From: Yuukianura sp. NJ FZ-2021 | Lineage: Eukaryota | Direction of reading: 5' to 3' | Assembly (NCBI GenBank): GCA_046563655.1 | Contig: CM102285.1 | Location: forward strand, 2,728,001 to 2,792,000 | DNA length: 64,000 bases | Shown: one piece after another, positions 3,615-43,000 of the stretch | Numbering within the stretch: position 1 is the stretch's first letter | How the letters are laid out: each line of letters starts with the position of its first letter | Position numbers and translations under genes: made by a program | Notes under the pieces: model-generated | Seen by the model: only the letters and a program-made list of their open reading frames with translations | Told to the model about the DNA's origin: nothing | The model's database searches: none

Positions 3615-6191
<2,577 letters not shown>

Positions 6192-12959: not shown

Positions 12960-13085
12960 CTTAATGCTGAAAATTTTGAACAACACTGTAAATGAGTGAA
13001 CTCGGAGTCAAAGAAATCCCATAGCAACTCAGTTTTGAAAAAACAATTTTCAACGACCGTACCTATAAGTATTCTATTTACCTTG
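12960..13085. mobile_element. Short CAAGG-ended element with 9-bp TSD
   Basis: Near-identical in reverse complement to 32129-32251; flanked by GTTCTGTTC (12951-12959, 13086-13094). Confidence 0.7.
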
Positions 13086-16793: not shown

Positions 16794-16969
16794 TGTCACA
16801 ATGATTAATCCGAATGAATAGTTTTCTGGCTGATACACGTCTTTATTAGCACGTATCAAACTCAACTTTGAGACAAAAGTGCAACTCATTAAAGGTATCG
16901 TAAGACATGAGCATATTTTCAATTTAATCTGAGTATGATGAACATTGAAAAGGAGTGAACCTTATCAAT

Positions 16970-17110
16970 TGATTAAACAAGGCCAATTTGGTAGCAAGTA
17001 TCAACAGTGTCGTAAAACAGACTCCAGCTATAGAAGAAACTTCGGTTGGGCATATGATCAAATTTTTCCATTTTTTTTCCAAAATGTTCAAATGCCTTTT
17101 TGGAATTTTC
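16970..17110 (-). pseudogene. Degenerate exon-1 fragment of a subfamily II receptor
   Basis: Contains AAGGCATTTGAACATTTT and ACTGTTGATACTTGCTACCAAATT like copy A exon 1, but the ATG is lost and there are internal deletions. The flanking 17110-17640 parallels 14520-15070. Confidence 0.7.
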
Positions 17111-17646
17111 AAAATTGGGTCAGCAGTTTCCAAACTAAAGACAGATTTTTCCATTGTAACGCAAATTGCGTGAAGTCAACCGTGACACTGGATATGTGAA
17201 CGTTTCAATTTCATTTAGGCATGCACAATGAAAAGGAGGAGAAGTTATAAAATAATTCACATAGGTTTTGTTTTGCGGAAGCTTGAAATGGATCCTTGTA
17301 TTTTGGAAATTGGGCTTATGGGTTAGTCGAAATTTTTAGGCAACCTCGATAAATTTCTTAACCTTGTTGTAGCCCTGAATTCAAGGTCAGTCGATGAGAC
17401 AGTTTTAAACTCTGTTTCCTACAATTAATCGTCATTTGGTAAATATTTTCAAAAAACATACCCTGAAGAAACTATTTTTACGTGAGGTTGCTGAGCGTAT
17501 TCGAAATTTACAAAAATCTAAATTGTAAACTGCTTCGTACTTCTTAAAGGCCAAAGATTGTAGACACTTTTTGCTTCATAGAGTTTCATTCTCTAAGTTT
17601 CTAAGTTACAAAATCGTACAACAGTGAGAATTTGCCTAATACTTGT

Positions 17647-17880
17647 TTATTGCGTGTACAAGAGTGTCCGAACACTGCCATTTGTCAAAATAGCATAATA
17701 GCACATGAGCGAATCTTTGTCCAGTTTCGTACGGTCTTATTTCAATCTTGAGCGGTCGACAAGATCTGGAATGCTTGCGGCTGACTTGGACGTAGTGTGT
17801 CGCATGCGTGATTTGAATTCAAGGGCGCGTTGGTTAATGTCCCCACCACTTTTAAACCAGACATGGGCAAATGACGACGA
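17647..17880 (-). pseudogene. Exon-3 fragment of a subfamily II receptor
   Basis: Encodes HVWFKSGGDINQRALEFKSRMRHTT...RPLKIE...KLDKDSLMCYY...LLYTQ; the upstream exons are missing. Confidence 0.75.
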
Positions 17881-18121
17881 GTATAAACAATGAAAAGTAG
17901 GAGTTATAAAATTATAAAAGTTATAAAATAATTATTATGGCATACGATATAAGAATTTGTTTTGTAAAAGTTGTGGAATTGAAAGAACTTCATGAAATTC
18001 GTTTTTGGAAAATATATTTTTGAGTTGACACCATTTGGAGGAAGATTGCTAAAATTTGTTCAAGTTTTAATACTATTAACATACTATGGTAAACAAGAAC
18101 AAAATTCAGTCAGGGACATTA

Positions 18122-19490
18122 GGGTAGGTGGGGGTAACTGTGGTACGGGGTAACTTGTGATAGTCGGCTATAACTTTGTTATTGTAACGATTTAAGAAAA
18201 TCTAAAAATTAGCTGAGATAGCTGGGGCTAAGTGCTTCATGGTGGGTAAAGGAGGGAGATAATTAAGTCACATTTTCTTACTGAAATCAGTGACACAGCT
18301 GTTAGACCAACTTACAACTCTTCATCCAAATTCTGCTTGCAGATTTTACAATTCAGTTTGCATGGTCTAAGATACGATTTAAACAGTGACTGTTATCTCA
18401 ATCGACATCATCATTGTGGTTAGTGTTGCAATATGATTAGTTTTCAATTTTAGGTAGTTTCGTTAATTAGTTAAACTGATTACCACAATTTCCCCACAAA
18501 TTCACGAAAGTGGGGGCAACTGTGGTTTTAACTAAAGAATAGGAGACTGACGCATAATATATTTTAGATGGTGCGAAAATACGTTCGCAAGACGGACAAA
18601 CGTCAATGGGACAGTGTGCTCATACGCAAAGCGGAAATGCGGAAATGCTAAAAACGATTACTCGGTTTTCAGAAAAAAGAATTCCAGAAATGCGGGGTTT
18701 ATAATTCCAACCTGGAATTTCCAGTCAATCGGGCTACAATTGATGAATCAAACTTTGATCCTACAAAACTTGAGCGTTACAAACGAACTGAACTGAACGA
18801 CACTGAAATTCCCGAGTTGGTCACAACACCGATTGTAGCTGTCGCTACAAATTCTGTTATTCCTCCCGAAAACATTTTTTCGGATTTAGCAAAGATTCTT
18901 CTGAAAACTGTTTCTCCTCAAATCGCTAACGTCACCACTGTGAAAAAAAAACGAATTGATAATGATAACGCAGAGATCATCGCAAAGGAGTCATACCTCA
19001 AGAAAGTAGAGGAAGAAAAACTGATCACAAAATCTAAGAAGATTTCTACTCCAAAAGTGACAAAAGCTAGAGCTTCAAAAGAAAAACCACCACGTGAAAA
19101 ACAATCGATCAAAAAATGGGATAAGCGATGTCGTTTCTAAATTTAACTGATTTGTCTATAGCTCACATGCCTCTGTCACTTAATCGTCGACTTTGGATCA
19201 ATTAAATTTCTTATCCGTAACCAAAATACTACCTACCACAGTTTCCCGCAGACCTACCACAATTACCCCATTTTTGCGGGTAACTGTGATAGGTGATTTT
19301 GAAATTTTGAAAATTATTTAAAAATACTTAAGCATTGAAATTTTTAAAACGTAGGTGGTGGTATTAACTTAGAACAGTATGTGCTAGGCAAGCGTGGTCT
19401 TTAGTTAATTTGTAGTGCTACAAGTTGCGACATTTAAGACGCAAAAGTCGAAAACGTGAAACAAACTACCACAGTTACCCCCACCTACCC
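18122..19490 (+). mobile_element. Internally deleted pogo/Tigger-like (Tc1-mariner superfamily) DNA transposon
   Basis: Perfect 24-bp TIR GGGTAGGTGGGGGTAACTGTGGTA, TA on both flanks, repeated subterminal GGGTAACTGTG motifs. ATG 18568 begins MVRKYVRKTDKRQWD (pogo-type transposase N-terminus), followed by broken frames and a Lys-rich tail ORF. Confidence 0.82.
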
Positions 19491-19722
19491 TACAACAAAC
19501 CTTGTTCTAGTAATATTACAATTTTTTTTAGATTTTGCAATTTTATTTTCCAGATTCACTGAATTTGTTTAACGAACGCCAACAAAAAAATTTAATGCAA
19601 GTAAGGGAGTGGTTGAACATCACAAGTTTGTTAAGACTTATTGTGAGTTAAATTGTAACCCGAACTCTACTCCAGTGCATGAAATATTTTACCTACACCA
19701 AACCTAAAACAACACTACCAAA

Positions 19723-22043
19723 CTACTGGGTGTACAGGAGCACATTAACGATACAATTAGTTAAAACTGCATAGTAGCAAATGAGCGAATCCTTGTCAAG
19801 CTTTGCGTAAGGCCCAATTTCTATTTTCAGAGGCCTACAACCCTTTGCCTCCCTTACAGCCAAAATTGACGTCGTGTAGCGCATATGCGTTTTAAATTGA
19901 AGCGCACTTTGGCTAACGTCTCCCCCACTCTTGAAACAGACATGCACAAATGCGGATACAGCAAAGTTTGACATTAGAGAAATTGCAATTGTACGTTTGA
20001 ACGCAGAACGCGCGTTTACAGCTGACCACTTTCTTTCTGCGTTAGCTGGCAAAGTTCACGTAGGGATTCTAAGTTGAAATCGCACGTTTGAACTTAGAAT
20101 TTTTAAACGTACAAATTCCAAGAATGGAACTTTAAAAATGGAATAGAAAAACCACCATAAGCAAGTATATCCGGTACAAGCATGCTGAAAACTTTTTACC
20201 GCTTACATAAACAGGCTTATTCAACAAACTTTCAACCCCATGACCGTTAGGTCACAAAACGTTTGGAGTCAAAGGTCACACATTGACCTGGCGTAACCCT
20301 ATCTATGCCACTGATATACTCACCGGAAATGGTTTGACCTCTTGAGTCATACAATGTTTATATGCTGCGACTTTTGACCTTCAATTCAAAAATTAGCGCA
20401 AGTCACGCGATGACCTAGCAGTTGACCCCCGAGTGACTTTTGAACTAAAAATCAGAAATTGCAACATTTCATGAATGAGAGTATCACGCCCTTTCCAACG
20501 ATATTTTTCTTGCATAAATTCACCACATAAGACAATGTGGTGACCCTTGACCCCAGGTTCTCATGTTGTGCGGAATAAAAATTTGGTAGAGCTACTGTAG
20601 TAAATCATATATACTGTAGTACTGCAAATAAATCATAGTTATAGCCCATATAAATGAACTGATATATATATCAGTTCATTTATATAGATATTTTATAATA
20701 TAGTATAAGGTTATATTACATTAGTATATTAATTATAAGTTATATTTATCAATTACGTCATAAATATAACTTATTATAATTAATATAATAACAATTTATT
20801 TCAATATAATTGGAAATCCAACATCTAAAACTGAACGTAGGTTCAAACGCGCAATGGATGATTTGTACGTTCAAACTCTTCCAAACTTATAAGTTTACGT
20901 ACGGAGAAAGTCCTCCGCACTAGCGCCCCCTAACCCGTAAAGCTCGCGTAACTCAAAACTCCTACGTGAACGCATAAGTTTACGTACGATTGCAATCTAC
21001 CTATTGCCAATGGCACTAGGATCTGAGTCGGAAAATATCGATGTAGAATTATTGTGCAACTGAACATTGTATGATAAAACATTAGGATAAATAATGCAGA
21101 AGGCATCAGCGTTCTATATGCAACTTGGTAACTGACATCTAAGAGTTGTAGTGCTTTGTAGCCCATGATGCTTTTACGTGACTCGCAATTCGAAACTTTT
21201 CCCCAGATTTCTTCAGGCACAAAATTCTCTCTAAAGTAATAAAAAATTCAAAAATTTCAACATTTTGGATTTCCTTTTTACATTTTTTTTCTAATATGTT
21301 TTGGAACCTTAAAATTTTGAGCCAGTACTTGACTGTATGAAAATGCATGACCAAAAACATTCCAAAAATACATCCAGCAAACACTCCGCTTGCAGAGACA
21401 TGCCACTCTACGATAAAGTATGCAAACCAAATTGGCGGGAACTTGTAAACAGATGTAGGGAGAACTTCAGATGGCCAATACTGTGGACTCATCGGTTCAA
21501 AAAATACGTTCAGAGCTGGAAAAATCGGGAACAGCATCACCGTGTAGTGACAAAGAATAGCAATTGTATTGGCCGTGAGGTGGTACCACGACTCTTTTGG
21601 CCGCTGATCGTCTCCACGATGATGCAGTGCTAAAAATAATCTCAATTCAGTTTTCGTATTGGAAACACATAGGTAGAAGAAAATTTACTTGTGAAATGTT
21701 GATGAAGTTTGACCAACTCCTTGTAGTACATCACAAGTTCTCGCCGATACAAGATACAATGGTACAGAAACAACAGTGCTATTGTTCGACACACCAGAAT
21801 CACTCCAATTTTTGATACAACGGTCATACTAATGTTGGGATCCCTCAGCAGACCATGGAACATAACTATTTGGTAGGAAGCATCCACTGAATAATACAGT
21901 ACATGCAAGATGAACAAAAAATAGTGACGAAATTTCTTGGTACGATCCGCTGCCTCTGGTTTCAAAATCACTAGCGAAATTTTAACTTTGGTACCAAACT
22001 CAATTGTTTTTCTAAAATGTTCAAAAGCCTTTTGGGTCAGCAT
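19723..22043 (-). pseudogene. Subfamily II receptor copy C, exon 3 interrupted by a 1027-bp transposon
   Basis: Exons 22043-21689, 21629-21308 and 21230-21003 + 19972-19723. Removing the insert and one TSD restores a 478-nt exon 3, the same length as in copies B and D. Confidence 0.78.
19976..21002. mobile_element. Non-autonomous TIR element with 3-bp TSD (PIF/Harbinger-like)
   Basis: Imperfect TIR AGAGAAATTGCAATTGTACGT / ACGTACGATTGCAATCTACCT; ATT on both sides (19973-19975, 21003-21005); absent from the paralogous exons. Confidence 0.72.
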
Positions 22044-22350
22044 TGTCAACACTTTGGAGCCTTGATAAAATCGTTTTTGACTAAAAATTCTGCCTTCTTT
22101 CCTGTACGAAGTCAACTTCACATTAATTGTTTACGTCTCAGTAATTAGTTTGTTGCGTACCATGTGTTCAATTTCATTCGAGAGTGGCAATGAAAAGGAG
22201 TGGAAACTCATCAAAAAATTACAATTTTGGAAGGTGTTCTTTATTTCCTTTCGTCAACTTGAGAATTTCGAAGAGTTACAAAAGTTTTCGGAAATTAGGT
22301 TTTCGGTTTGGTAGAATTTTGGCTAATTAATTTTGTAGTGTTTTGATATA

Positions 22351-22560
22351 CAGTGAGAGGCACGAAAACCTGCACACCCCAAATTTGTTTCCCTGGTAAC
22401 AATGAAAATTGTGGAGGCGAAAACGTACCTTTTTGTTAAAACGCTAAAATGTGACTCAAAACTCTCATTGTGGGTTTTTTCGTGAACCGATTTTCCCCCC
22501 ATAATTTAGCAAAATAAACAAAAAGCTACTTTTGAGGTGTGCAGGTTTTCGTGCCTCTCA

Positions 22561-22563
<3 letters not shown>
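22351..22563. mobile_element. Tc1/mariner-like MITE
   Basis: Perfect 28-bp TIR CAGTGAGAGGCACGAAAACCTGCACACC, TA-flanked, 213 bp. Confidence 0.88.
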
Positions 22564-22602
<39 letters not shown>

Positions 22603-22603
22603 T
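22564..22603. repeat. (TA)n microsatellite followed by a T run
   Basis: Directly visible. Confidence 0.9.
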
Positions 22604-23049
22604 GGAGAGTAATTGACATTAGCATTTAGCTTTATCAACAAGGGTTAGGGAATTTCTGGGTTGGGTTGAGGTCCTATGAGGTGGGGCGGTGGTACAGTCA
22701 GATAGTTGGTGAGAAGTTCTGAGGGAAGGACGAAAGGCTTTCTGCTAGAGCTGAACGGGCTAGGGCCCTACCACATATCACAGCTCCAGGCAAGTGACAG
22801 GAACAGCATCGTACGCATACCGGCCCACGACCCCCCTCCACAACAGCAACTACTGACCTCTTCACACGCACCCATAACCCCCAAACTGACCTATCATCCG
22901 AACACCCCATCTGGGCTAGGAAAGTGGAAAAACCATTTCTGGAAAACGACTTTCGTGTCGGCGACGCCGGGACTCGAACCCGCGCCCGTCCAAGGTGTTA
23001 GTAGGATAGAGCCGAAGCTCTAGTCCCCCCGGCCTACGGGCCTTGGACT
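22604..23049 (-). mobile_element. tRNA-derived SINE-like insertion
   Basis: The minus strand has a pol III B-box/T-arm GCGGGTTCGAGTCCCGGCG near its 5' end and a GC-rich body. GTGTTTTGATAT is duplicated at 22338-22349 and 23050-23061. Confidence 0.65.
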
Positions 23050-23400
23050 GTGTTTTGATATTTTGGAGGTCAATTACTCAAGGTCAGTTGATGAAGAATA
23101 GGAGCTTGAAGCGTTATTTCTTTTTACATTCAAAGTTCTACATTCCTAGAACCGTCTAACGCAAACATCACAATACCCGAAGCCGCTTTGAAGTTAGCAA
23201 TTTTTTTGTTTGCTATACTTGTTTTCGAGGTTTTCGTTTTCTTGTTTTGCTATACTTATACGACTTGTCTTTGAAAGTAATTGAGAACGATGAAACTGCA
23301 GTATTTTATGTAAGCTTTTTCAAATTTATTTAAATTTTTGCTCAGAATTCACCAAATTTGATGCCTACAAACAATGAAGACATACCAAGTAGAGGTATAG

Positions 23401-24759
23401 TTATTGAGTGTAAAGGAGTACTTGGACAATGTAATTCGTTAAGAGAGCGAAATAGCAAATGAGTGAGTCCTTATCGAGTTTCATAAAGGGCCCAATTTCC
23501 ACCTTGAGCGGCCGACAAGCTGCCGCGTCCATTAAAGCCAAAACAGACGTGCTACAGCGCATGCGCGCTTTAAACTCTAATGCGTTTTGGCTAACGTCTC
23601 CACCGCTTTTGAGCCACACATGCACGCCTGATGAGAGTACAATATTTCCTATAACGCCTATCACAACGATCTGAGTAGGCAAATATTTATGCAGAATTAT
23701 CATGCAGTTTGTCATTGTGTGATCGAAAATTAATGCAAAGTATGCGCATGGCGTTGCAGTCCTGTATGCTTTTTGGTAGATTGCATCTAGTAGTCGCAGT
23801 TCTTTGTACGCCATGATGTACTCGCGTGGCTCACAATTAAGAACTTCATGCAGATGAAGTTTTTTCTTAAACTTGTTCCTAGAGAATTTTAAAAATCGTA
23901 ATTATTCTCAATGATTTCTGCATTGTCTATTTTTTGATTAATAAAACCTCAAAATTGTGAGCAACTCTTTTAATGCTTGAGGATGCATGATCAAGAAAGA
24001 TCCAAAAACGATACCAGCGTATATACCACTTGCAGTTACATGCCATTCCACTAGAAAGTAAGCAAACAATACTGGCGGGAATTTGTAAACTGATGTTGGC
24101 AAAATATGGGATGGCCAAAACTGTGGACTCATGGGATCAAGAAACACATTCATTGCTGGCAAGATTGGAAAAATTAGCACGTGGTAGTGACCTATTGCTG
24201 CAAGTAAGTTTATGTCGAGGTAGTATCGCGACTTTCCTGTTGGAATATACTCACTGCAATAGTGCAACCCTAAAAAAAACAAATATATTATATGACCACG
24301 ATGTTAAGCTTGTTTTGCATTTTACTTTTATGACAATTGACCAGCCTGGTTGGCCCTAGTTTGCTAAATTTATAAGTGAAAAATATAAAGTTGATCTCGA
24401 TTACTTGTAAACCGTTGATGTAGGTTGACTAGTTTGTTGTAGTAGATGACCATTTCCCGTCGATATATAAACGAATGATATTGGAAAACGAGTGAAACCG
24501 TTCGAAATACCATAATGACTCCAACCTTTGCTAAAACTGTGACGGTAACGGTAGGATCCATTGCTAGACTGTGGAACAGAACAATTTGGCAGATAGTGTC
24601 AACAGTATAGTAGAACAGACCCAAAAAGTAGAAGACATAATAATAAATTCTGCTAATGCGATTCATTTCTTCCGGTTTCCAAATGGCTCCCGAAAGTTTA
24701 AGTTTAGTACCGAATTCAATAATTTTTTCAAAATGATAAAACACCTTTTCCGTCAACAT
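23401..24759 (-). CDS. Chemoreceptor-like protein, subfamily II copy D, ~384 aa
   Basis: Exons 24759-24405, 24269-23948 and 23878-23401 are in frame, with the same exon lengths as copy B (355/322/478). Confidence 0.75.
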
Positions 24760-25200
24760 TCTCAAAATATTGAAACCGAATGAAGGGTTTTAGTTGAGCT
24801 GATACACGTTTTTATTAGCTTGTGTCAAACTCAACCTTGCCACAAAAGTGGTTTCCTTGAAGTTGTGGTAAGACGTGGGAATGTTTTCAGTTTAATTTGA
24901 GTATGAGCAATCAAAAGGAGGGGAACTGATAAAATACTTAAAATAAGCCGACGTTTGTTTCCGCCAGGCGCTTGTAGAGTTGAAGAGTTTTCAAAGTTTT
25001 TGTGATGTATTGTGTATGCCTTTAGGTTAGCACAACTTTGCATTGAAATGTTGAACATTGTTTTCTCTAACCTAACACTTCAAGGCCTTATGATAAGAAA
25101 TTATGTAAATTTGCAATATCACCTTAACTAGCACCCATTCAATATTTACAATTTGGAGTTACTATTTGACATATCAACGGGTAGCAGACATGTTTTTGAT

Positions 25201-26038
25201 TTAGCGGGCACAAATGGAGTTTGTATCGATTTGTGACCGGCATGAAAGGTCGACAAAAAGTTTTGGATCAAAACCGAGCTGCTTAAGATGATCATGAATT
25301 TGCTCTTTGTGTGCAGGGGAAAGCGAATCTGGAGTTGGACCCCACACGGTGAAAGATGATTCGTTGTCTTCCCAGCACGTAACACCGACTAGAAAGTTTT
25401 TGTTGTCTGTCAACGTAAAGGTCAATTTGCCACACAGCGCTATTTGGGACAACACAAAAATTCATTGTCAGATTTCTTGAACACACAAAAATAACTCTAA
25501 ATAAAATTTTTTTAAAGGCACTTACCATATTTACTGCGTGCCTTGAAGTGGATGACTAAATTTTCTTCGATGGTTACGTCGTACTTCATTGGCTTCAAAG
25601 CTCCAAAACCGATGCAGTTGAAATCCAGCAGATCACAAGTCGGGCAGGAGTAGTTGGCAAGCGAGTGTGGAAGATCACAAATTTTTGTGTCTAAAATGTC
25701 ACTGGCAAATCGGTACAGTTCCAGTTGATCGACAAGTAGGTAGTACCATGTCTTAACTGTTCCATTGGTAACCTAAGTTATGTAAAAATGTGTTGGTACA
25801 TTGTGAACTCTTTTTAGTTGTTAAAAGTTTGAAGTTCATGAATTTCTTTGCTCAGTGTTTCAAATAAAATTTAATTAATTAAAAAATAACACAATACCCA
25901 TTCAAAATCCAGTCCGGGATAAGATTGAACAGCGAAACAGCGTCCTTCTTTTGTCGAGTCTTCATTAAGTGCTGGAACGGGAGAAATCCCAAGAAGTGCA
26001 GTCGTGAAGATGTATACAATCGGCTTCATTTTGAGCAT
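25201..26038 (-). CDS. Secreted lipocalin-like protein copy 1, ~208 aa, 3 exons
   Basis: Exons 26038-25898, 25772-25526 and 25439-25201. Signal peptide MKPIVYIFTTALLGISPVPA; C..V.....LDFEW...GT..TWY (SCR1-like); LTDNKNFLVGVTC (SCR2-like); C-terminal helix EQIHDHLKQLGFD as in ApoD-type lipocalins. Confidence 0.62.
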
Positions 26039-26697
26039 TTGAAGTTATTTTTAAAGAGTTGAGGAGCTTTGGAGGTAAGAAGGGAAAAATTGAAAAAAAA
26101 ATCAAACCACGCACACATATTTTCAATAAACGCAATAATGCCTGGGGGTTTTAAAGCTATAAACTGACCTTCGTCTATGTACGATAAACATTGCTCGGTC
26201 AAAATCCTATTTATACAGTTTCGCTGGTCTCAAGGTTTCAAGACAAAAAAAAGTGTTCCTTTGAGCAGCGAAACATATTTACAATTTTACGATGGGATTC
26301 ATGTGACGATTCATGTCCATTTTTTGTGCAGCTGAATTATGGTCAAGGCTTCTAGACAACTAAAAGCTAAACATATTGCTCTAATTTGTAACAACCTGCG
26401 ACGATCCCAAATTTTAAATATAATTCCAATGTGTATTGTAGTGTAAGAAATTGAGACTTAGTACTTATTTCATTTTTCATTATATCCATTTTTATCGTAT
26501 ATTTCTTGCTTATTTTTTTATGACTTATTTGGCTTTTTTTATTACACAACGACGCAAAAAACCTTACAGTAGAGCTCAAAGTTGACTGAAAAAAATTCCT
26601 GGGTTTCCCAACGTATTACTAGGACATAGTAGTAAATACTTATTTAAATTTATTAATTGATTTACATTTATAGGCTTATACAGTGTTTATTTATTTC

Positions 26698-28089
26698 CTA
26701 GCGTGAACCTTGACTTAGCATACACACGAACGATATTGTGCAACTTATAATGTTCTGATTGATGTTTATAACCATTCCTTTATCTACATAGTTCAATGGC
26801 CCACATCTAATACAACACGGTCTCAAAGACTTGATGAATACAGCATATTCTTTGTTTTTATTTGCTTCTACTATTTGAAATTTGGCAATACTGGAACTTG
26901 AATTAGTGAAAATTGACGCAGCAAATGCAACGAAAATGTTAAGGCTAACGATTAATATTGTCGCCACGCCAAAGAAACTAAATAATTCCAGTGAAAAGCC
27001 CAACCCAAAGATTCTTGTATAACACACCACAATACACATCCCAAAAAATACTATTACAGAGACAAAAGGCAATGCCATAAGTTCACTAAATACTTCTGAC
27101 ATAATGTAAACTGTTTTATAAAAATTTGGGTTCAAAACTGCTAAGCTTTGTTTTGGGGAATTTCTTAACGAAGGCGTATGTAACCACTGGAGCAGAACAC
27201 TCATGCTTATGATAACTATCAGTTTATATTGTTCGTACTTGTAAAAAATGAAGTAGACATGTATCCACACAACAATCGTACCTGTGGTAGCAGCAGATAT
27301 TACTATAAACAGTTCTATGTTGTTGTCCAATGTAGGAAAAGTGGAACCTAGTACATATGAACACAGTCTCATCGTATCTGCAAAACAAGCCACGGGAACA
27401 ATACCGATGGAAAACGCAAAGTACTTTTCAAATATGGACATAACGTTCAGAGCTTGGAAGTTCAGTTGTGTTCCGTCGATATAGAAATTCGACCCTGTCA
27501 AGAAATGAAATCATACAGTCCATTTTGTTTTTGAAAATTTGTATAATACTAAACTGTTTAACTTTATTTGCTTAACTTAACTAATTTAACCTTTGTTTAA
27601 ATGTATAACTTTTTGAGTACTCCATCAATTTACAGCGCCTAACCTACCTTGTTCCGACGTCAATATGTACATTAGCATGTTCATATGTTGTTGCCAGAGC
27701 TTCTTTTCCCAAATCTGTTGAACATCAAGAACGACGTTGTGGCATATTATTAAACTAGCCGCCAATAGTAGCATTGTCAGAACTGTATTAAGTTTTCCAG
27801 TGTAGTTGCAGTAAGCACATCCAGCACATATTAAAACAGTGATACAGTCCAGTGCAAATATGCGAAAGGAATTTCTGACATATTTCTCGGATTCATCCAC
27901 GACAAACATTTTTTTGCGAGAACTCCAATACAGTGGATTCTGGTACCGGTCATGTGCTTTGCCAATGTAATGTAGCAACATATCAACGACTTCACGATTA
28001 TGGTTAAGTTTAGCAGGCCTAACCTTGTGACGAGTTATTTTGTTTCTCTTAAGTTGCAACATGATGCTTTTTTCTAATACTTTGATCAT
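26698..28089 (-). CDS. Chemoreceptor-like multi-pass membrane protein, subfamily III copy E, ~412 aa, 2 exons
   Basis: Exons 28089-27648 and 27494-26698 (phase 1). Many TM segments; ends KSLRPCCIRCGPLNYVDKGMVININQNIISCTISFVCML. Confidence 0.68.
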
Positions 28090-29000
28090 TCCAATAACGA
28101 CACGAAATTCCCTACGTTATTTCTGCGTTCAGTGTCTATCGTTCGTTCTTTAGGAAACTGTTCTTTGGCGTTTACGGTTTCACAAATTTTCTGCAAAAAT
28201 TAAGGTTCAGTTACACACAATAGCAATGTACAACGCTATAAAATAAACTAGAGTTTCTTTTCAACAACCACCTACCAAAGACGCTTAAAAAACGAATGAT
28301 TCTTTGAAGATAATGGATCGATTGAGCTTTACAAAATTTTGATGCAAACATTTTTGTTTGCAAAAAATAATCTTGATGCGAAGCGCTTTGCCAACTAAAG
28401 ACAAAAGGGTATAGGCCACTAAATTTTTAAGTTGTAAGATAGAAATCGAGTAACAATACTATCCACCAGCATAATAAGGCGTGTGGCACGCCCCGCGTGC
28501 CTACTGCCTATCTCACTAAAATGCTTTCTTGATAGTATATTTATGGTATTTATACATTATTAAACGAAAATCCAAAAATGCCATCGTATTGTAGAAAAAG
28601 CTACTTTATGGTTTGATGTCTTTTGCTTGTCTGTCTGTCCGGTGGTTGGTTGTACTGTAGTAGTCTGTCTCACAAGATTCAGCTTCAAATTCTTGGTGAA
28701 CCAACACATCAAGCAGTCAGCGACATACCACACATACGTTTGTAAGTAAATGTCTATGACAAAATAATTTTCAACAACATTGCATTATATGCGTGGCTCA
28801 AGGTAAGTTGGTCTTCATCGACTTAATTTAGATTCTGTCCAAATGTTGAATTTGATGGTTGATTTTTATAGGCACATTTTTAAAAACGTTTTCCACCTTT
28901 TGTAGTTTTGTGTGTAAGAAAGTACAGACCGAATTCGTTTTCCTCCGTTGTTTAGGATTCGTCAACTCCATCGCCAGCTAGAGAAAGTTCCTGTTTTTCG

Positions 29001-29192
29001 CAGAATCACCCCATTTTGTGGTACAAGGGTAACTGTAACGCTTGCATCGTTCAATAAACCGTAGGCCATAACCGTTTGGTAGCAAATATCCGCCGAGTAA
29101 TGCACTTGAGCGACGTAGAACAACAAATAATAACGAAATCTCTTTGTGCGATCCATTTTTTCTGGTTTCCAAATTACTGCAGAAAGTTTAAG
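29001..29192 (-). pseudogene. Exon-1 fragment of another subfamily II paralogue at the duplication junction
   Basis: Encodes WKPEKMDRTKRFRYYLLFYVAQVHYSADICYQ...GVIL; truncated at both ends. Confidence 0.7.
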
Positions 29193-29201
29193 CTTATCCC
29201 C

Positions 29202-29409
29202 TAGGATCCATCATTAAATTGTAGAACAGAACAATTTGGTAGATAGTGCCAATAGTGGAGTAGGACAGAGCCAAGCAGTAGAAACAGTAGTGACGAATTT
29301 TGCTTAAACGACTCATTTTCTCCGGTTTCCAAATGGCTCCCGAAATTTTGACTTTAGTACCGAATTTAATCATTTTTTCAAAGTGATAAAATGCCTTTTC
29401 GATCAACAT
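29202..29409 (-). pseudogene. Truncated subfamily II receptor (5' part of exon 1 only)
   Basis: MLIEKAFYHFEKMIKFGTKVKISGAIWKPEK...MMDP, then homology ends. Confidence 0.75.
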
Positions 29410-29890
29410 TTTCAAAATATCGAAACCGACTGAACAGTTTTAGTCGAAGTGATACACGTTTTTATTAACTTGAAGCAAACTCAACCTTGCCACAAAGATA
29501 TTATTCCTTGAAGTTGTGGTAAGACGCGGGCATACTTTCTCAATTTAATTTGAGTATAAGCAATCAAAGCGAGGGGAATTAATAAAATAATTAAAGTAAG
29601 CCGACATTTGTTTCCGCCAGGCATTTGCAGAGTTGAAGAGTTTTGAAATTTGTATGGTATTGTATGGTCAATGTCTTTAGATTAGCAGAACTTATCGTAA
29701 GAAAACGTTGAGCATTATTTTCCCCAACCTAACTGTTGTAGGCCTTATGATACGGAATAATGTAAATTACATTAGGAATATAACCTTAACTAGCACCCAT
29801 TAATTATTTACAATTTGGAGTTATTATTTGGCATATCAAAGGATAGCAGACATGTTTTTGATTTAACCAATACTTGGATTTTGCATCGGT

Positions 29891-30675
29891 TTAGCATGAA
29901 AGGTCGACGAAAAGCTTCGGATCAAAACCGACTTGCTTGAGGTGATCATGAATTTGCCTTTTGTGCGCAGGCGTTAGCGGATCCGGAGTTGGACTCCAAA
30001 CGCTAAAAGATGATTCGTTGTCCTCCCAGCAAGTAACACCAACCACAAAGTTTTCGTTGTCTGTCAATGTAAACGTGAATTTGGCAGACAGAGCTATTTG
30101 GTACAACATGCATTGTCAGATTTTTTTAAACCCACAAAGATAATTCTTTTTTCTTTGAATGCACTTACCATATTTACTGCGTGCTCTGAAGTGGATAGCT
30201 AAATTTTCGTCGATGGTTACGTCGTACTTCCTTGGCTTCAAAGCTCCAAAACCAATGCAGTTGAATCCCAGATCACAAGTCGGACAGGAGTAGTTGGCAA
30301 GCGAGTGCGGGAGATCACAAATTCTTGTGCCTAAAACGTCAGTGGCAAATCGGTACAGTTCCAGTTGATCGACAAGTAGGTAGTACCATACCTTAACTGG
30401 TCCATTGGTAACCTAAATTATGTCAAAAAGTGTCGCTAATTGTGAAATCTTTTTTAGTTAAAAGTTTGAAGTTCATGAATTTCTTTGCTCAGTGTTTCAA
30501 ATAAAATGTAATTAATTAAAAAATAACACAATACCCATTCAAAATCCAGTCCGGGATAAGATTGAACAGCGAAACAGCGTCCTTCTTTTGTCGAGTTTTC
30601 ATTAAGTGCTGGAACGGGAGAAATCGCAAGAAGTGCAGTCGTGAAGATGTATACCATCGGCTTCATTTTGGACAT
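29891..30675 (-). CDS. Secreted lipocalin-like protein copy 2, ~195 aa
   Basis: Exons 30675-30535, 30412-30169 and 30093-29891; paralogue of copy 1 that stops earlier at DLSC. Confidence 0.62.
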
Positions 30676-31321
30676 TTGAAGTTATTTTCAAAGGGTTGAG
30701 GAGCTTTAGAGTTACAAGTAAGAAGGGATAAATTGGAAAAAAATTTAAGCTACAATACACATGTTTTCAATAAACGCTATAATGCCTGGGGGTTTTAAAG
30801 CTATAAGTTGACCTTCGTCTATGTACGATAAACATTGTTCGGTCAAAATCCTATTTATACAATTTCGCTGGTCTCAAGGTCTCAAGACAAAAAAGTTTTT
30901 CTTTGAGCAGCGAGACATACTTTACAATTTTACAATGAGATTCATGTCCGTCTGTTTGTGCAGCCGAATTATGGTCAAGGCTTCTAGACAACTAAGCTAA
31001 GCATATTACTCTAATTTGTAACAACCTGCGACAATCCCAAATTTTTAATATAATTCAAATGTGTTTTGTAGTGTACAAATTGAGACTTACTGATTTCATC
31101 GTTCATTATATCCATTTTTATCGTATATTTCCCGCTCAATTTTCTTATGACTCATTTTACTTTTTTATTACACAACTTCGCAAAAAACCCTACAGTATAG
31201 TTCACAGTTGACTGAAACAAAATTATTGGGTTCCCCAAAGTATCAAGACATAGTTGTAAATACTAGTTTAAATTGATTAATTGATTTACATTTATAGGCT
31301 TATACAGTGTTTATTTATTTC

Positions 31322-32981
31322 TTAGCGTGAACCTTGGCTTAACATACACACGAACGATATTGTGTAACTTATAATGTTCTGATTGATGTTTATAACCATC
31401 CCTTTATCTACATAGTTCAATGGCCCACATCTAATACAACACGGTCTCAAAGACTTGATAAACACAGCATATTCTTTGTTTTTATTTGCTACTATTTGAA
31501 ATTTAGCGATGCTGGAACTTGAATTAGTGTAAACTGATGCAGCAGATGTAACGAAAACGTTAAGGCTAAAGATTAATAATGTAGCCAAAGCAAAGAAACT
31601 AAATAATTCCAGTGAAAAGCCCAACGCAAAGAATCCTGTGTAACACACCACAATAAACATCCCAAAAACTACTATAACAGAGACAAAAGGCAATGCCACA
31701 AGGTCACTAAATACTCCTGACATAATGTAAATTGTTTTGTGAAAATTTGGTTTCAATAAACTTTGTTTTAACGAAGGCGTATGTAACCACTGGAGCAGAA
31801 CATTCATGCTTATGATAGCTACCACTTTGTATTGTTCATACTTGTAAAAAATGAAGTAGACATGTATCCAAACACCAATCGTGATTGTGGTCGCAGCTGA
31901 TATTGCTATAAACAGGTCTACGCTGTTGTTCAATGCAGGAAAAGCTGTACCTAGTACATACGTACACAGCTTCATCAAATCTGCAAAACAAACGACGGGA
32001 ACAATACCTAGGGAAAACACAAAGTACTTTTCAAATATGGACATGACGTTCAGAGCTTGTAAGTTAAGTTGTGTTCCGTCGATGTAGAAATTCGACCCTG
32101 TAAAAAAAATCAAATCATACAGTTCATGCAAGGTAAATAGAATACTTATAGGTACGGTCGTTGAAAATTGTTTTTTCAAAACTGAGTTGCTATGGGATTT
32201 CATTGACTCCGAGTTCACTCATTTACAGTGTTGTTCAAAATTTTCAGCATTTTAGTCTCAATACTTTCGCCGCAAACTTAAAAATAGCTTAAAAACTCGG
32301 ATGAACCTGTATTTTCACTCGGAGTGACGTCACTGTGAGTGAAATTGTAAACAAATAAAGAATCGGTTTTGGTCGCTAAGGCATTTTTGCCGCCCCCTGC
32401 AGTTCATGCATTTTTTTAGTTTTGTCTATTACTAAACTGTTTAACTTTATTTGTTTGTTTCACTTAACTTAACTCACTTAACTTTGTTTAAATGTATAAA
32501 CTTTTTGAATACCCCATAAATTTAAAGCGCCTAACCTACCTTGTTCCGACGTCAATACGCACATTAGTATGTTCATATGTTGTTGCCAGAGCTTCTTTTG
32601 CCAAATCAGTTGAACATCAAGAACGACGTTGTGACATACCATTATACCAGCCGCCAATAGTAGCATTGTCAGAACTGTATCAAGTTTTGCAGTGTAGTTG
32701 CAGTAAGCACATCCGGCACATATTAAAACAGTGATACAGTCCAGTGCAAATATGCAGAAGGAAATTCTGACATAATTCTCGGATTCATCTAAGACAAACA
32801 TTTTTTCGCGAACACTCCAATGCAGTGGATTCTGGTACCGGTCATGCGCTTTCCCAATGTAATGTAGCAACATATCGATGACTTCACGATTATGGTTAAG
32901 TTTAGCAGGCTTAACCTTGTGACGAGTTATGTTGTTTCTCTTAAGTTGCAACATGCTGCTTCTTTCTAATATTTTTACCAT
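31322..32981 (-). CDS. Chemoreceptor-like protein, subfamily III copy F, ~405 aa
   Basis: Exons 32981-32540 and 32097-31322; paralogue of copy E with short in-frame deletions. Confidence 0.68.
32129..32399. mobile_element. CAAGG-ended element with 9-bp TSD in the intron of copy F
   Basis: Absent from the paralogous intron of copy E; CAGTTCATG on both sides (32120-32128, 32400-32408); shares ~120 bp with 12960-13085. Confidence 0.78.
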
Positions 32982-34081
32982 TACAATAATGACACGAAAT
33001 TCCCTACGTTATTTCTGCGTTCAGTGTCTTTCCTTCTTCAGGAAATTGCTTTTCGGCGCTTATGGTTTCGCAAACTTTCTACAGAAAATTAAGGTTCGCA
33101 CGTTAATAGCAATGTAGAACACGCAATAAAATAAACTAGAGTTTCTTTTCAACAGCCACCTACGAAAGACGCTTAAAAAACGAATGATTTTTTGAAGAGA
33201 ATGGATCGATTGAGCTTTACAAAATTTTTGATTCGAACATTTTGTGTTTGTAAAGAACACTTTAATGCAAAACACTTTGCGGAATAAAGATAAAAGGGTA
33301 TAGGTCACTAAATTTTTCAGTTGTGAGAAAGAAATCGACCAACCTTATACTTTCCACTCGCTCAGCTTAATACGGTAAGTGCCTATCCCACTACAATGCT
33401 TTTCTTGGTTAGCATATTTATAGTATTCATAAGTGATAAAACGAAAATCCAGAAATGTCATCGTATTGTGTAGAGAATGCTGCTTTACGGTTTGAGGTCT
33501 CCTGTTTGTCCGTCCGTCCGGTTGTTGGTGGTATTAGTTTGTCTCACAACATTTAGTCTCAACTTGTTGGTCATCCAACAAATCAAGCAGTCGGGGACTT
33601 ACCACATGTGTATGTAAATTTTTATGACAAAATTATTTTCAACCAAATTGCATTATGTGCATGGTCCAAGGTAAGGTGGTCTTCATCGATTAGTAATTCA
33701 GATTCTAATAAAACATAAAATTTGTTGGTTGATTTTTATATATTTTTTAAAACTTTTCACGTTTTGCAATTTTGTGTGTAAGTAAGTACAGACCGATTTC
33801 GTTTTTCCTCCGTTGTTTAGGATTCGTCAACTCCCTCGCCAGCTGGAGAAAGTTCCAGATTTTCGCAGAATTTAAATTTGTAAATAAAGGAGTTAAACTT
33901 TCGTTTTCGCTTGTAAAAATTTAAGCTCCCCTCTCTCCATCATTTGCTTTTGGTATTTGCACCACTGCCATTAACTTTTGTGAATCAATTTCAATTAAAT
34001 TAAAATCAACAGTACACTCTAATATTGCACAATATGCCAATAATTCAACGAAGCGTACAATCTTGTGTCCAAGGGAGGAGA

Positions 34082-37000: not shown

Positions 37001-40000
37001 TGTTTCGGTTCTCTGCTCACGAGAGAGGTTTCCTCCGCTGTTTCGGTTAGGTTTAAGCTTCGGTGTGTTCCTGGAGCTTCCTGGAAGGGAGGAGGAGTTA
37101 GTTAAATGATGGAATTGGAAACGAGATTGGATGAGGATTTGGGAGCAAGAGTTACTTAATAAAGGACAGGTTCCTAGTTCATAAGTAAAATTAATTAAAA
37201 CCTGTCACAGAGGGGGAATAACCAGCATGAACATCACAAGGGAAAACAAAAAATTAGGAAGAGGCAGTATCATAGCCACTCCTATTATTAGTCATTTTAC
37301 GGTATTAATTTCCCAGATTTCCCTAGGAATTTGGAAGTTGTAAAAAAAACTAAGTGTTATATGCCAGGATTTACGGTATTTTTTTTTGTTTCCAGCAAAA
37401 CATCAAAGTGGACACAACAGTGGAGTTGTTCATGCCGGGATTTACTACAAACCTGGTTCTCTGAAAGCGAAACTGTGCGTTGAAGGTCTGCAGCTCTCCT
37501 ACGCCTACTTCCTTCGAAATGGAATTCCGTACAAGAAATGTGGAAAATTAATCGTTGCTGTGAGTCCAGATGAAATAGGGCCACTGCGAGCACTCTACGC
37601 TCGAGCTCTCCAGAATAATGTCCCTTCACTTCGATTTCTCGAGACGAGAGAGGAAATTAAGAAATATGAACCGAATTGTGAGGTAAGACGAGTGACGACG
37701 ACGCACAGCACACTTTTTTGTCACATCAAATTACACTTTGGAGGCCAAATAAGGAGAAACACGAGTAAAAGTTTTCGTAATTTGTACTGAAAGTGCTTTT
37801 TTTTTTGCATTTTCCAGGGTTTAATGGCAATTTTGTCTCCGGAGACAGGGATTGTGGACTGGGCAGTTGTGACGAACTCCTATGCTTCAAACTTTGTCAA
37901 ATCTGGCGGTTCGGTATTTTTGAATTTTAATGTAACTCGATTCGACCTCAATCAAGGGGAAGACGGAGCTCAATTTCCAGCGTCAATTTTCAGTTCTGAT
38001 GGAAAAGTAAGTCACGTGGTCATTTACGAAACACTTGAAATTCTATTAGATACACACAGTTTCTTAAGTTTCCAAAAAACAACGTTTATTTTTGGGATCG
38101 TTTTTTTAACTTTTGTTTTTTCTTTTGTAGATTTTAAATTCAAAGTACATTTTGACGTGTGGTGGGCTGCATGCGGATCGATTAGCTGCACTGTCTGGTT
38201 GTAGCCCAAATCCGAAAATTATTCCATTCCGAGGCGAGTATCTTCTGCTGAGTAGAGAGAAATGCCCGCTCATCCATGGAAACATTTATCCTGTAAATCA
38301 TTTTATATTCATTCCTAATCTAAGACTCTACCTTCCTCCATTTTCTAAATTCTCTTTTCTACAAAAGCCCGCTTTTGTGAAAAAGGGAATGCGGGAGAAG
38401 TTGGAATTATTTCTTTTTCTGAGAAAGTTTAGGCGGAGGTTAGGGGAGAGAGATGGTACGATTGAAATAGGAGAGAGGCAATTTACGACTCGACCTTTCT
38501 CTATACTTAACGCTTGTGCATTAATCAAGGAGCGAGAGAAGAAAGAGTCTATCACATGAATAATTTTGCCATTCCTGACATTGGAGCAAGGGCGGGAGTT
38601 GCCATAAAGAAGAAATGGGAGTAGAGGGGGCTGTTATCGGGGGGAGAACACAAGAGGGCAATTGGAGAGAGCCAACATATTGTTAAGGACCTGATAACTT
38701 ATAATTAATACCTGATTACATAATGGACCAACTTGGATATTACGTCCAGAAAGAAGATTTTATTACCCGACAACTCCGCCTTTTCTTAAAATTATATAAT
38801 TTCCACCTAGGCTTTCTCCTTTTATTTTCAACTCCCAGACTCACGCATTTCTGGGCAAAAGAGGAAGGCCATGGGACCTACAAATGTGTACGCAAAATTA
38901 TCAACAGTGAATATTGTAGTAAATATGTAATCGCGGAATTACTTCTGACCGGTAGATTTCATTAGTATATGCTAGATAGGAAAACAAAAGTGACCAAAAC
39001 TGAAACATTTACATACTGTAAGGTCAGGAAAACAAGAGAAACTAAGAACGACGGTAAAAATACTACATTTTTCAAAGCAGTTCAAGTTTTTGAGATATTG
39101 GTTGTCCGAAATTTTGTAGATGAAAAAAAAATATCTTGCGCGAAATGTTCGAAAATTTTTTATAACAACCTTTTTTATTTTAAATCATAATAGTCATATT
39201 CACGACATCTCGTGAAGGGGTAACCGAATATTGAGGCAAAAAATATCACGTCGCCCCAGTCTCATCACATATCAAACGCCGCAGATTTTTTTTTATATTT
39301 TTTGTTGTTGATCATTTTGACGTTGACATTTTTGTCTGTCTCATTCTGAACCCTGTCTTGCCTGGAGATGGTGTTGGGAAAATGGGAAAACGTAATGGGT
39401 TTATGCAGCGAGGTCTAAACTGCTACACGCTTGTCCTTCCTGGAACTGCTTGGAGGAACAGAGCTTTCTTTGTTGTGCTTGCTAAGTTAAGTTTGCATAT
39501 AAATTCCGAGGGAGAGGAAACCTAAGGAACGCTGCCTCTTCTACTATTTCAGCTTCCAAGGAGCGCTTCGCTTCAGATATGATCTTTTGCAAAGAGAAAA
39601 CTCATATCAGACAAAAGTAGAGAGAAAGTGAGAAAGGAATATGCCTTGCGAATTCTCATAAAACCAGATAGACTTTCCACTCTCACTCCAAATCGTTCCT
39701 TCCAAGTACAAGTACACTCTCAACTTTTGATATTTTACTTTGCCTAACAGCTCCTGCTCGATGTCCATATGAAGGCAAAAGAAAAAAAAATGCAGTTTCG
39801 GTGTAAACTTTGAGATGAGATGTTTTTGAAGCTTTGTGAATTTGTTGGGTTGAAATGAAGGAGAAAGTGGGTTGATGTGAACTGGTGAGCGTGTAGACGT
39901 TGGAAGAAGCAGAGGTGGGTTCGAATCCTGGGGGAGTGGAAAAAGAAAGTCGTGGGTCCTTATGCCTTGGGAGAGTAGTAAAAAGAGTGGGAAGAAATAA

Positions 40001-43000
40001 AAGGAAACAAAAGGGGTTTTGGCATAAAGGAAAAAGAAACACATTCTTCATCAGAGTTATCTTTCCAAAGTCTATTCTTTTATAAATGTTTCCTTATTTT
40101 CTCCAACACACAGCTTTCTCCCCAACTCCAACTCCCAGTCTCTTCAGTCCACTACTCAAACCTACACTCTTTCGCTGCTTTTCACCAACTATTCGATTTT
40201 TAGTTTTAATCGATTAAACTCACCCTGTAGTTTGGCTTATTTTGAAAGAAAAAAAAACAGAAAAGTTTCTTTAGCAAACCAAAATATGATTTTCCAGACT
40301 TTAAAATTTTTGATTTGCTTAATTAAAATTTGCTTAATTAAATTTGTATTAATACCGAATTTCTGTCGCTACTTTTGAATATTTTGGTTTTTATCGACAG
40401 GCAACTGAGCGTGTATTTGAAGTTTTACGGTATATTGAAAAAATTCGAATGGGGCTAACTAAATGTAGTCTTTTTTGAGGATTTGATACGGTTAGGAATG
40501 AAAATTTCAAGTTTTAACCGAGTGAAAGTGGGGTGAGTTAAATTGAGAGAAAGGGGAGCAGAAGTATGTTTTTGTTGTAGGATTTCTTTTACTGTTCCAC
40601 TTGAAGGTTTTCTTTTCTCTGTTGGGTTTGTAACTCTGAAAAGTTTCCATTATAGGAAACCATAAACTATAAAGTCCAGACGCAACTGGAACTTTGAGTG
40701 GAGCTGTGTATTTTTCTTGCTCAACTTTTGGGTTATGTCTTATGTGTTTTGGACTTCGTTTTGTTACCAGGTACCAGACGCAAGATTCCCGTTTCTCGGA
40801 GTCCATTTTACGCCACGAATGGATGGAAGCGTTTGGCTTGGACCCAATGCCATTCTGGCCTTCCGCAGAGAGGGCTACGCCTGGACTCATTTTGATCACA
40901 GAGATTTTATGGATGCAATCAGATACAAAGGCTTTCACAAACTGGCAACCAAATATCTCACATTCGGACTCACAGAAATGGCCAGATCCCTGTTCCACCA
41001 ACTCCAACTCAAACAACTCCAGAAATATGTCCCAGCCATCCAGGCCAAAGACATCAGTCGGTATGTCATAAACCAAAAACATAACTTTTACGCTTAACCT
41101 TACTGTTAAAGGTTAACTCTGTGCCGATTAGTTAGGGAGACGTTTTCGTTTTGGAAAGCTAAGTTTTTGAAGAATTTGAGCTCCATTTTTTGAAAGTTGA
41201 GCTTCAGAGAAGCTCTTTTTAGCTCAAACGGTACAAAACAGTTTTTGAGAAACGAAAACAGACATTTGTCTTCTATTTGATTTTCCTGGGTGTACATGTG
41301 CCCATTTCCCTCGTCTGTTGAATTTCCAAACTACAGAGAGAGAGAGAGCTCTGTGTTGCAATATGTTTATTTTAGTGATTATCCAATATCAGACGCACAT
41401 TTACGCTTTTGGACAGACACACTAACTCTTTTTCCTCTACTATTTGTTTTGCAACTGACAAGCTAAATGGAACGAAGGAGGGGAAACACTTTTTCATTAA
41501 TTCCAATTTCGAAAAAAGAAGTAAAAAAGAGAAATTAGGCTCAATGAACAGAGAAATGGAAGTTCAAGGATAAGACTTTTCAGGATTCTCAAACTACTCC
41601 TGCATGATTAATTTTCTAACAAGCTAAACCTATAAAACTTGTCGAAAATCCAGTTTGCTGGTTTAGGCAAACATAATTTCCCAAAGTTGCTTTTAATTGG
41701 CCAAAAACTGTTTTGAAAATGAGGAACACCAAACTGTCCTCGTCTGTACGGAGTCCTCTGAAAACCGCAAAGTTTGTCACAACTCAAAAATTGGCTTTGA
41801 CTTTTTTGTTTTTTTCTGATTTCGCATCAAATTTTTATAAAAATTCGATATTCACTTTCACAATTTCTCGTGTTCACTGTTTTTTCACAACTCACTAAAA
41901 AGTGAGTTGTGCGACAATTTCATTTCCTTTTCCTTGTCAAAATTAAAATTTCAAAACTTCAGGGTTCCCTAGGGACATTGTCAGAATTGGGCCAATCACC
42001 TTTCTGTTTTTTTAAATCAGCGTTTTTGGATCGATTCAGGGATTTGAGGAACGTTTAAAACTTGGCTTTATTTTTAAATTGGTTATACTCAAGGTTCCCT
42101 CACAACTATTTAGTATTCTTTAACAGGTTACGTAATAACCTCAGTTGTTTACGAAAAAATGAGAATATCATATAAATAATATGTAAAAAATCGTTTATAA
42201 CGTCGTGGTTACGATATCCTGAATTGCAACTGAACTTTTTGTGAAATTTAAAAACAACACGAGTTATTACGCAACATGTTAAACAAAATTAAGAACAAAC
42301 CTTTGGTTATACTTTTTATCATTATTATTTTGTTTTGGAAATTTGGAGAAAGCAAGATCGCAATTACGCAGAATGGATTGGATTCGTGTGGTTTGTGACT
42401 GAAGCGGCAATTTGAAAAAATGTTTTGGTGGGAAATTTGAATTTGGCGATGAAGCATTTGTGACTTTGTTCATTTGTCGGGGGGAAGGAGCTGGAAGGGG
42501 GCAGTGAGTGCGGTGACAAAGCAATTCCATTAAAGTGAATTAATGAATTTGTTGGTGGTGGGATGCTTGGGTCTTTTATTTGTTTTAGTTTGTGCTTTGG
42601 ACTTCTATTATGTTCTGACTCTGACTTATAGAATGGCCCCATGGCCAGACTCTGTTTTTGCCCAGCACTGCAAGTCTCTCAATCCATGACATTTCTTCTT
42701 CCAAAGACTAATCATGTCGTTAGGTCCACAGAGACGAACTCACGATTTGGCTAAGCGCTCTGATTCGTCTTGATGTCACATTCAGCGACTCAGCAGTCAC
42801 CACCAGAATTCGGCTTCCGAAATACTGCTGGGCACCATGCAGACCCGGCATTCCGAAGAACAAACCATTTGTAACCCCGCTGACCACTGAAGGAGCAGAG
42901 ACAAAGAGTTTAGTTCCTTTGAACCCAGCAAAACCCAATGTGTCACTCCACTTTCCAACTCAAATTTTAATCACCCCATTAGTTTTGATCGATTTTCGGT

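Follow-up and report, generated by a model that had tools for sequence, protein, structure and literature searches.

Birth-and-death evolution is well established in chemoreceptor gene arrays, where segmental duplications with gene conversion leave breakpoints inside paralogues, pseudogene stumps and mosaic divergence, and where both copies stay under relaxed but real constraint. The insect gustatory receptor/olfactory receptor (GR/OR) superfamily consists of proteins of ~400 amino acids (aa; range ~370–450) with ~7 hydrophobic segments, encoded in tandem arrays by genes with few introns. The odorant-binding proteins (OBPs) and major urinary proteins of vertebrates are soluble barrels that ferry hydrophobic ligands. 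Vertebrate OBPs are lipocalins and serve receptors of the G protein-coupled type, while arthropods use other families (PMC3134979); the receptors described below have no relationship to that type. Lipocalins of arthropods have been proposed as semiochemical carriers from their gene expansion, their clustering among other lipocalins, and their expression in sensory organs (Zhu et al., 2021; PMC8214410), and foreleg-enriched lipocalins are described in Varroa (PMC11534843), whereas a tick study argued against a chemosensory carrier role for tick lipocalins (PMC5536051). Here, we describe a locus of Yuukianura sp. NJ FZ-2021 in which a chemoreceptor gene and a small lipocalin-like gene were copied together. 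It lies in a stretch of 64,000 nucleotides (nt), hereafter the window (contig CM102285.1 of assembly GCA_046563655.1, positions 2,728,001 to 2,792,000, forward strand), to which all positions refer. The original prediction, made from the letters of the window, had proposed a coupled carrier/receptor module, with passive hitch-hiking as the alternative. The best overall explanation, which we hold to be somewhat more probable than all others together, is that an ordinary segmental duplication within a cluster of chemoreceptor genes took a neighbouring gene with it.

Two tandem units on the minus strand, 84–86% identical, make up the locus (Table 1). Each contains a two-exon gene for a multi-pass membrane protein (412 and 405 aa), receptor III, followed by a three-exon gene for a secreted protein (205 and 192 aa). 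Self-BLASTN resolved the repeat into two collinear blocks, 24552–27523 against 29202–32127 (85.9% identity over 2997 columns) and 27538–29006 against 32421–33871 (83.9% over 1499 columns), and the block ends equal exactly the limits that had been predicted for a ~4.5 kb tandem block on one strand. A repeat finder gave the same picture, as 19 of the 20 direct-repeat families between 20 and 40 kb include a pair spaced 4603–4892 nt. The two units were compared on a MAFFT alignment. The duplication period differs between the two sides (4.65 and 4.89 kb) because unit 2 has a ~290-nt insertion in the receptor intron. An 11-nt direct repeat borders this insertion, and a 123-nt part of it recurs, inverted and at 99% identity, at 12963–13085, shortly downstream of the first subfamily-II receptor gene; the insertion is probably a small, young, recently active mobile element. 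An Rfam scan of the window gave no match.

The ends of the units indicate how the segment was cut. The breakpoint at 24552 falls within exon 1 of the intact subfamily-II receptor gene II-4, and unit 2 ends in a 207-nt stump that retains only the first 69 codons of the corresponding exon, in agreement with the truncated third gene described previously; exons 2 and 3 were not found after this stump. A second subfamily-II exon-1 fragment, at the unit junction, shares 43% aa identity (tblastn E=3.9e-16), is more diverged and older-looking than the adjoining stump, and is no simple continuation of it, a possible sign that the junction was rearranged more than once. The duplication and its limits thus stand as predicted, while the view of two uniform units has to be amended for the insertion, the early stop of the second secreted-protein copy, the junction fragment, and the mosaic divergence described below.

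Table 1. Positions of the duplicated units, their genes, and surrounding features in the window.
Feature	Position	Strand	Details
Tandem unit 1, downstream copy in transcription direction	24552..29006	-	BLASTN blocks, MAFFT alignment
Tandem unit 2, upstream copy	29202..33871	-	Repeat finder, BLASTN blocks, MAFFT alignment
Receptor IIIa	26698..28089	-	Exon 1 28089-27648, exon 2 27494-26698; 412 aa
Receptor IIIb	31322..32981	-	Exon 1 32981-32540, exon 2 32097-31322; 405 aa
Secreted protein (lipocalin-like) A	25201..26029	-	Exons 26029-25898, 25772-25526, 25439-25201; 205 aa
Secreted protein (lipocalin-like) B	29891..30666	-	Exons 30666-30535, 30412-30169, 30093-29891; 192 aa
Exon 1 of intact subfamily-II receptor gene II-4	24405..24759	-	Gene runs on to 23401; 3 exons
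Truncated subfamily-II exon 1, end of unit 2	29203..29409	-	Codons 1-69 only (207-nt stump)
Second subfamily-II exon-1 fragment, unit junction	29001..29204	-	Codons ~16-83; 43% aa identity, tblastn E=3.9e-16
Unit-2-specific ~290-nt insertion, receptor IIIb intron	32129..32420		Flanked by 11-nt direct repeat
Low-divergence tract between units	25516..28343		Two-rate segmentation, likelihood-ratio statistic 69
Subfamily I receptor gene, 3 exons	1834-3149	+	Opposite strand; only window receptor with a (sub-threshold) 7tm_7 match
Subfamily II array, four 3-exon genes	13145-24789	-	13.1-14.6, 15.2-16.8, 19.7-22.0, 23.4-24.8 kb
Orphan subfamily-II exon-3 fragment	17877-17650	-	
Flanking housekeeping gene	3615-6005	-	
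Flanking housekeeping gene	8389-9680	-	
Flanking housekeeping gene	12346-12867	+	
Flanking housekeeping gene	37344-41097	+	

All four duplicated genes have intact frames and only GT-AG introns. Every coding indel between the units is a multiple of three (5/5), compared with only 8 of the 41 found in introns and spacers (p=9e-4), which bears out the open frames and in-frame indels of the original prediction. The stop codon of receptor IIIa (TAG) is directly followed by AATAAA at 26695–26690, and the signal occupies the same place in both units. Since this poly(A) signal stands directly after the receptor stop and 668 nt ahead of the ATG of the lipocalin-like gene, the two genes are likely to be separate transcription units. 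The secreted protein is predicted from the gene models to have a hydrophobic N-terminal signal and a mature part of ~185 aa. Copy B ends 13 codons before copy A, owing to a CAA>TAA change and a deletion of 6 nt, and its mature part has seven cysteines against nine in A, two of those in A being missing.

Receptor III has the size and layout of the GR/OR superfamily, with ~7 hydrophobic segments in a Kyte-Doolittle scan of the spliced models, and is very remote from it in sequence. Its exons match neither 7tm_7 (PF08395) nor 7tm_6 (PF02949) in Pfam, and no Pfam family was found in any of the 25 receptor-III relatives scanned. A word-indexed search with exon 2 returned one match among 711 candidates, the relative P0001 at 42% identity. 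When 1.84 billion representatives were searched exhaustively by profile, 26 relatives emerged at E<=1e-3, of which P0012 and P0019 are full length. Members of this family lie on eukaryote-like metagenome contigs of ~37–41% GC, and at least one of them is intronless (L005:28-1278). P0012, a remote homologue found at a profile E of 1.3e-8, was modelled from a 28-row family alignment headed by itself, from which 2 of 30 rows (two exon-1 pieces misaligned by MAFFT) had been left out, with a predicted local distance difference test score (pLDDT) of 73.6 and a predicted template modelling score of 0.62; the hydrophobic segments agree with helices in this model. A Foldseek search of the PDB lists 21 rows for ranks 1–23, and every one is a chain of an insect gustatory or olfactory receptor (Gr64a, Gr43a, BmGr9, MhOR5, Orco, ApOR5, AgOR28, and AaOR10), superposed over the full length with E from 3e-5 to 0.026 and template modelling scores of 0.44–0.61; the next match has E=1.2.

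Profile comparisons point weakly in the same direction. The 28-row family profile aligned with subfamily I (P=2.4e-4) and subfamily II (P=3.9e-3) of the window in hhalign, and these matches are collinear and C-terminus-anchored but weak, while shallow profiles of subfamilies I, II, and III gave no match against one another (P 0.18–0.37). Exon 1 of subfamily I reaches E=0.0038 and 17 bits against 7tm_7, below the cut-off of 26.6. The conserved motif of GRs and ORs in the seventh transmembrane segment is T-Y-x-x-x-x-x-Q-F. The receptor-III family alignment ends N-x-A-I-x-N-x-T-I-S-x-x-x-x-x-K, a layout like that motif in which the canonical residues are absent, and the family has a strongly conserved C-terminal signature of its own, S-L-R-x-C-R-I-x-C-G-x-x-Y-F-x-D-R-G-V, for which there is no Pfam model. 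From the modelled fold of the remote relative, which resembles insect GR/OR structures only, we assign receptor III, as a divergent member, to the GR/OR superfamily of seven-transmembrane (7-TM) channels, and the predicted receptor identity is supported.

The small secreted protein is rather likely to be a lipocalin, as judged from its sequence. Its size and hydrophobic N-terminus, read from the gene models, fit a secreted lipocalin (~160–200 aa), and exon 3 of copy A matches the Lipocalin family (PF00061) at E=0.0086–0.011 and 16.7 bits, below the cut-off of 23. The match spans profile positions 82–141 of 145, the C-terminal half, as expected for a C-terminal exon; the Pfam scans were run on single exons, which lowers the attainable score. 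No lipocalin match at E<=10 was obtained in Pfam for exon 3 of copy B or for exon 2 of either copy. In the ESM Atlas, the ten best family-bearing look-alikes of exon 3 all belong to one family or clan, the families shown being VDE, Lipocalin, Lipocalin_2, Lipocalin_10, and Triabin; the top match scores 0.90 and shares 187 of 256 features, and the recognition value of 2722 lies above the 2300 mark, in a resource that by its own statement provides leads only and in which a third of shuffled proteins also give ten concordant matches. Exon 2 had no usable Atlas match. PDB sequence searches with single exons and two-row profiles revealed no lipocalin and no relationship to vertebrate OBPs, the annexin, ATG12, and PPR protein matches (E 0.39–1.1) being due to chance. 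Among 5.8 billion proteins no homologue was found: none of the 10 candidates for exon 2, compared with longer proteins, scored, and exon 3, searched at near lengths, gave no candidate. Lipocalins, members of the calycin clan, fold into an eight-stranded antiparallel beta-barrel with a C-terminal helix and carry a G-x-W motif in strand A, a T-D-Y-type motif in strands F/G, and an Arg in strand H, and T-D-N followed by Cys is also counted as a lipocalin feature. Both copies have T-D-N with a Cys nine residues on, and K-T-W-Y (A) or K-V-W-Y (B) stands where G-x-W would be. Compared with the arthropod lipocalins in the available part of PMC8214410, the protein shares secretion, a length of ~200 aa, several cysteines, local duplication, and weak PF00061 similarity, but its cluster partner is a chemoreceptor gene and not other lipocalins, and this lipocalin candidate has no detectable sequence relatives.

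Both gene pairs are under purifying selection, and both copies look functional. The two receptors are identical at 335 of 405 aa, with a ratio of nonsynonymous to synonymous substitution rates (dN/dS) of 0.52 (bootstrap 0.37–0.77; Fisher test of synonymous against nonsynonymous changes, p=0.0017), and the secreted proteins are identical at 167 of 192 aa, with a dN/dS of 0.28 (0.16–0.51; p=1.1e-5). The most diverged part of the lipocalin-like gene, exon 3, is also strongly constrained (0.14; 0.05–0.32). Exons 1–2 alone give an uninformative 0.69 (0.31–2.3) because they lie in a tract of low divergence or gene conversion. Neutral ratios, which the original prediction had listed as evidence against itself, were found in neither pair.

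Divergence between the units is mosaic. Two-rate segmentation delimited a central tract with 9.2% mismatches against 18% outside it, and none of 40 permutations reached its likelihood-ratio statistic of 69. The difference persists at non-coding sites only, with 72 of 767 sites mismatched inside and 254 of 1545 outside (p=3e-6). Jukes-Cantor distances in non-coding sequence are 0.19 upstream of the receptor, 0.18 in its intron, and 0.11 in the spacer between receptor and lipocalin-like gene, and then 0.07 in intron 1, 0.20 in intron 2, and 0.18 downstream of the lipocalin-like gene; synonymous divergence in this gene runs in parallel, with 0.08 in exons 1–2 against 0.6 in exon 3. As synonymous and non-coding sites show the same shift, the tract is most simply explained by, and is probably due to, gene conversion that followed the duplication.

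These features are best explained by an old tandem segmental duplication within a lineage-specific cluster of GR-type chemoreceptor genes with the 7-TM ion-channel fold. The copied segment began just upstream of the subfamily III receptor, included the small secreted gene, and reached into exon 1 of the following receptor gene, of which a stump remained. Purifying selection has since maintained the receptor and the secreted protein in both copies, while gene conversion has probably re-homogenised the central tract, most clearly from the 3' end of the receptor to exon 2 of the lipocalin-like gene. The lipocalin-like gene was most likely duplicated for lying between receptor genes, and not for working with receptors. 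Such a history differs in nothing essential from known duplications in chemoreceptor arrays; the sole unusual passenger is a non-receptor gene encoding a secreted protein.

Two other explanations concern the genes themselves. If one unit were a decaying, non-functional copy whose frames are open for want of time, the lost last 13 codons and two cysteines of lipocalin-like copy B, the mobile-element insertion in the intron of receptor IIIb, and a receptor dN/dS that also fits one neutral and one constrained copy would be readily understood, as would the slight asymmetry of relative rates when P0001 serves as outgroup (IIIa has 14 unique changes, IIIb has 5; p 0.04–0.06, marginal). However, all frames are open at a nucleotide divergence of 8–10% in the receptor coding exons and 8–18% in the lipocalin exons, the splice sites of all four genes are intact, coding indels are exclusively in frame, exon 3 of the lipocalin-like gene is tightly constrained, and the insertion does not lie in the faster receptor copy (a). 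Neutral decay is therefore unlikely to have affected a whole unit, and the decay explanation as such appears highly improbable. That the small protein is instead some other cysteine-rich secreted protein with lipocalin signals arising by chance deserves more weight, although it is still the clearly less probable identity. It would account for a Pfam score under the gathering cut-off in one copy only, for an exon 2 silent in Pfam, the Atlas, and the PDB, for the missing homologues, for the non-canonical G-x-W, and for an Atlas result of a kind that one-third of shuffled proteins also reach. Yet the best single Pfam family is the one predicted beforehand, with the C-terminal exon falling on the C-terminal part of the profile, none of 107 unrelated control open reading frames (ORFs) from metagenome contigs matches any lipocalin family, the Atlas value exceeds its mark, and size, signal peptide, and the T-D-N and Cys arrangement all fit a lipocalin. 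The predicted term lipocalin-like is thus supported by a signal-peptide protein of lipocalin size with a PF00061 hit and Atlas look-alikes, and is qualified by a score that stays below the Pfam threshold.

The remaining question is whether receptor and lipocalin-like protein work together. In a carrier/receptor module, the secreted lipocalin would supply the neighbouring receptor with hydrophobic ligands, and the two would be duplicated and kept as a unit, which would let carrier and receptor diverge together. The genes do lie on one strand, 668 nt apart, were duplicated together, and are constrained in both units, and the semiochemical-carrier proposal and the Varroa data (PMC8214410; PMC11534843) make such a role conceivable. 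However, any two useful neighbours in one segmental duplication would give the same pattern, the poly(A) signal after the receptor stop makes a shared transcript unlikely, and the tick study (PMC5536051) speaks against a carrier role. The association, moreover, is a single ancestral event that was copied once: tblastn found a lipocalin beside none of the five other receptor genes and only the two unit copies in the whole window. On metagenome contigs carrying distant receptor-III relatives, a lipocalin neighbour was seen in 0 of 9 (best tblastn E=0.55; Pfam 0/107 ORFs), a weak linkage test with contigs of 1.3–6.5 kb and receptors 31–43% identical to the query, one contig encoding the query protein itself. 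Of two metagenome scans, one matched 317 pattern stretches with none confirmed and the other gave the nine loci; the neighbours on these nine contigs encode an ABC transporter, an RPE65-type oxygenase, and a BED-finger protein. In literature searches aimed at such linkage, no report was found that links receptor and lipocalin genes physically, and the available text of PMC8214410 has no mention of such linkage. A module thus received no positive support and seems very unlikely, and slightly more unlikely still is its fullest version, in which an orphan lipocalin-type carrier would have been recruited to a Pfam-invisible GR-like branch and the pair inherited, duplicated, converted, and selected as a two-gene sensory cassette. 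Passive hitch-hiking, the alternative in the original prediction, is the better-supported and favoured interpretation, and we infer an absence of functional coupling between the receptor and the lipocalin-like protein.

Several points weigh against this explanation by segmental duplication with hitch-hiking. The negative linkage test is weak, as the contigs are short, the relatives remote, and the contig of P0001 outside the sample; co-retention of both genes over ~0.18 substitutions per non-coding site would be expected of a functional pair too. The fold evidence comes from the remote homologue P0012, the model of exon 2 of the window receptor itself (three-row alignment) having been discarded at a pLDDT of 38, and the lipocalin Pfam match is sub-threshold and confined to copy A, with exon 2 giving no signal. 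In addition, a pairwise dN/dS of 0.52 could by itself mask one decaying receptor copy, and the low-divergence tract covers the promoter region of the lipocalin-like gene, so that regulatory constraint is not fully separable from gene conversion.

The surroundings of the units have the character of a chemoreceptor cluster. The window holds five other receptor genes, one of subfamily I (1.8–3.1 kb) and four of subfamily II (13.1–24.8 kb), one of which is disrupted. In the third subfamily-II gene, the last exon is split by ~1 kb (21232–20993 and 19995–19726), and this split exon and the orphan exon-3 fragment of the array are typical debris of birth-and-death evolution. Together with the truncated copy, these fragments and the disrupted gene resemble the pattern known from tandem GR/OR arrays. 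The flanking genes encode alpha-tubulin, an ABC-2/ABCG-type transporter, an EF-hand protein, and a FAD-dependent oxidoreductase of the DAO family. The region is gene-dense, and its introns are short.

The findings will not surprise a specialist, as a divergent GR/OR family and a segmental duplication with gene conversion are of kinds already known. Their present value lies in a very divergent receptor family of predicted GR/OR fold that Pfam misses and that has 26 relatives among 1.84 billion representatives, in an orphan secreted protein as a lipocalin candidate, and in a chemoreceptor cluster that cleanly illustrates segmental duplication, pseudogene stumps, and probable gene conversion. If receptor and secreted protein were nevertheless coupled, they would offer a specific receptor and carrier on which the as yet untested idea of arthropod lipocalins as semiochemical carriers could be examined. 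As a cassette, they would represent a physically linked pair of binding protein and receptor in an invertebrate and would lend direct genomic support to the lipocalin-carrier hypothesis.

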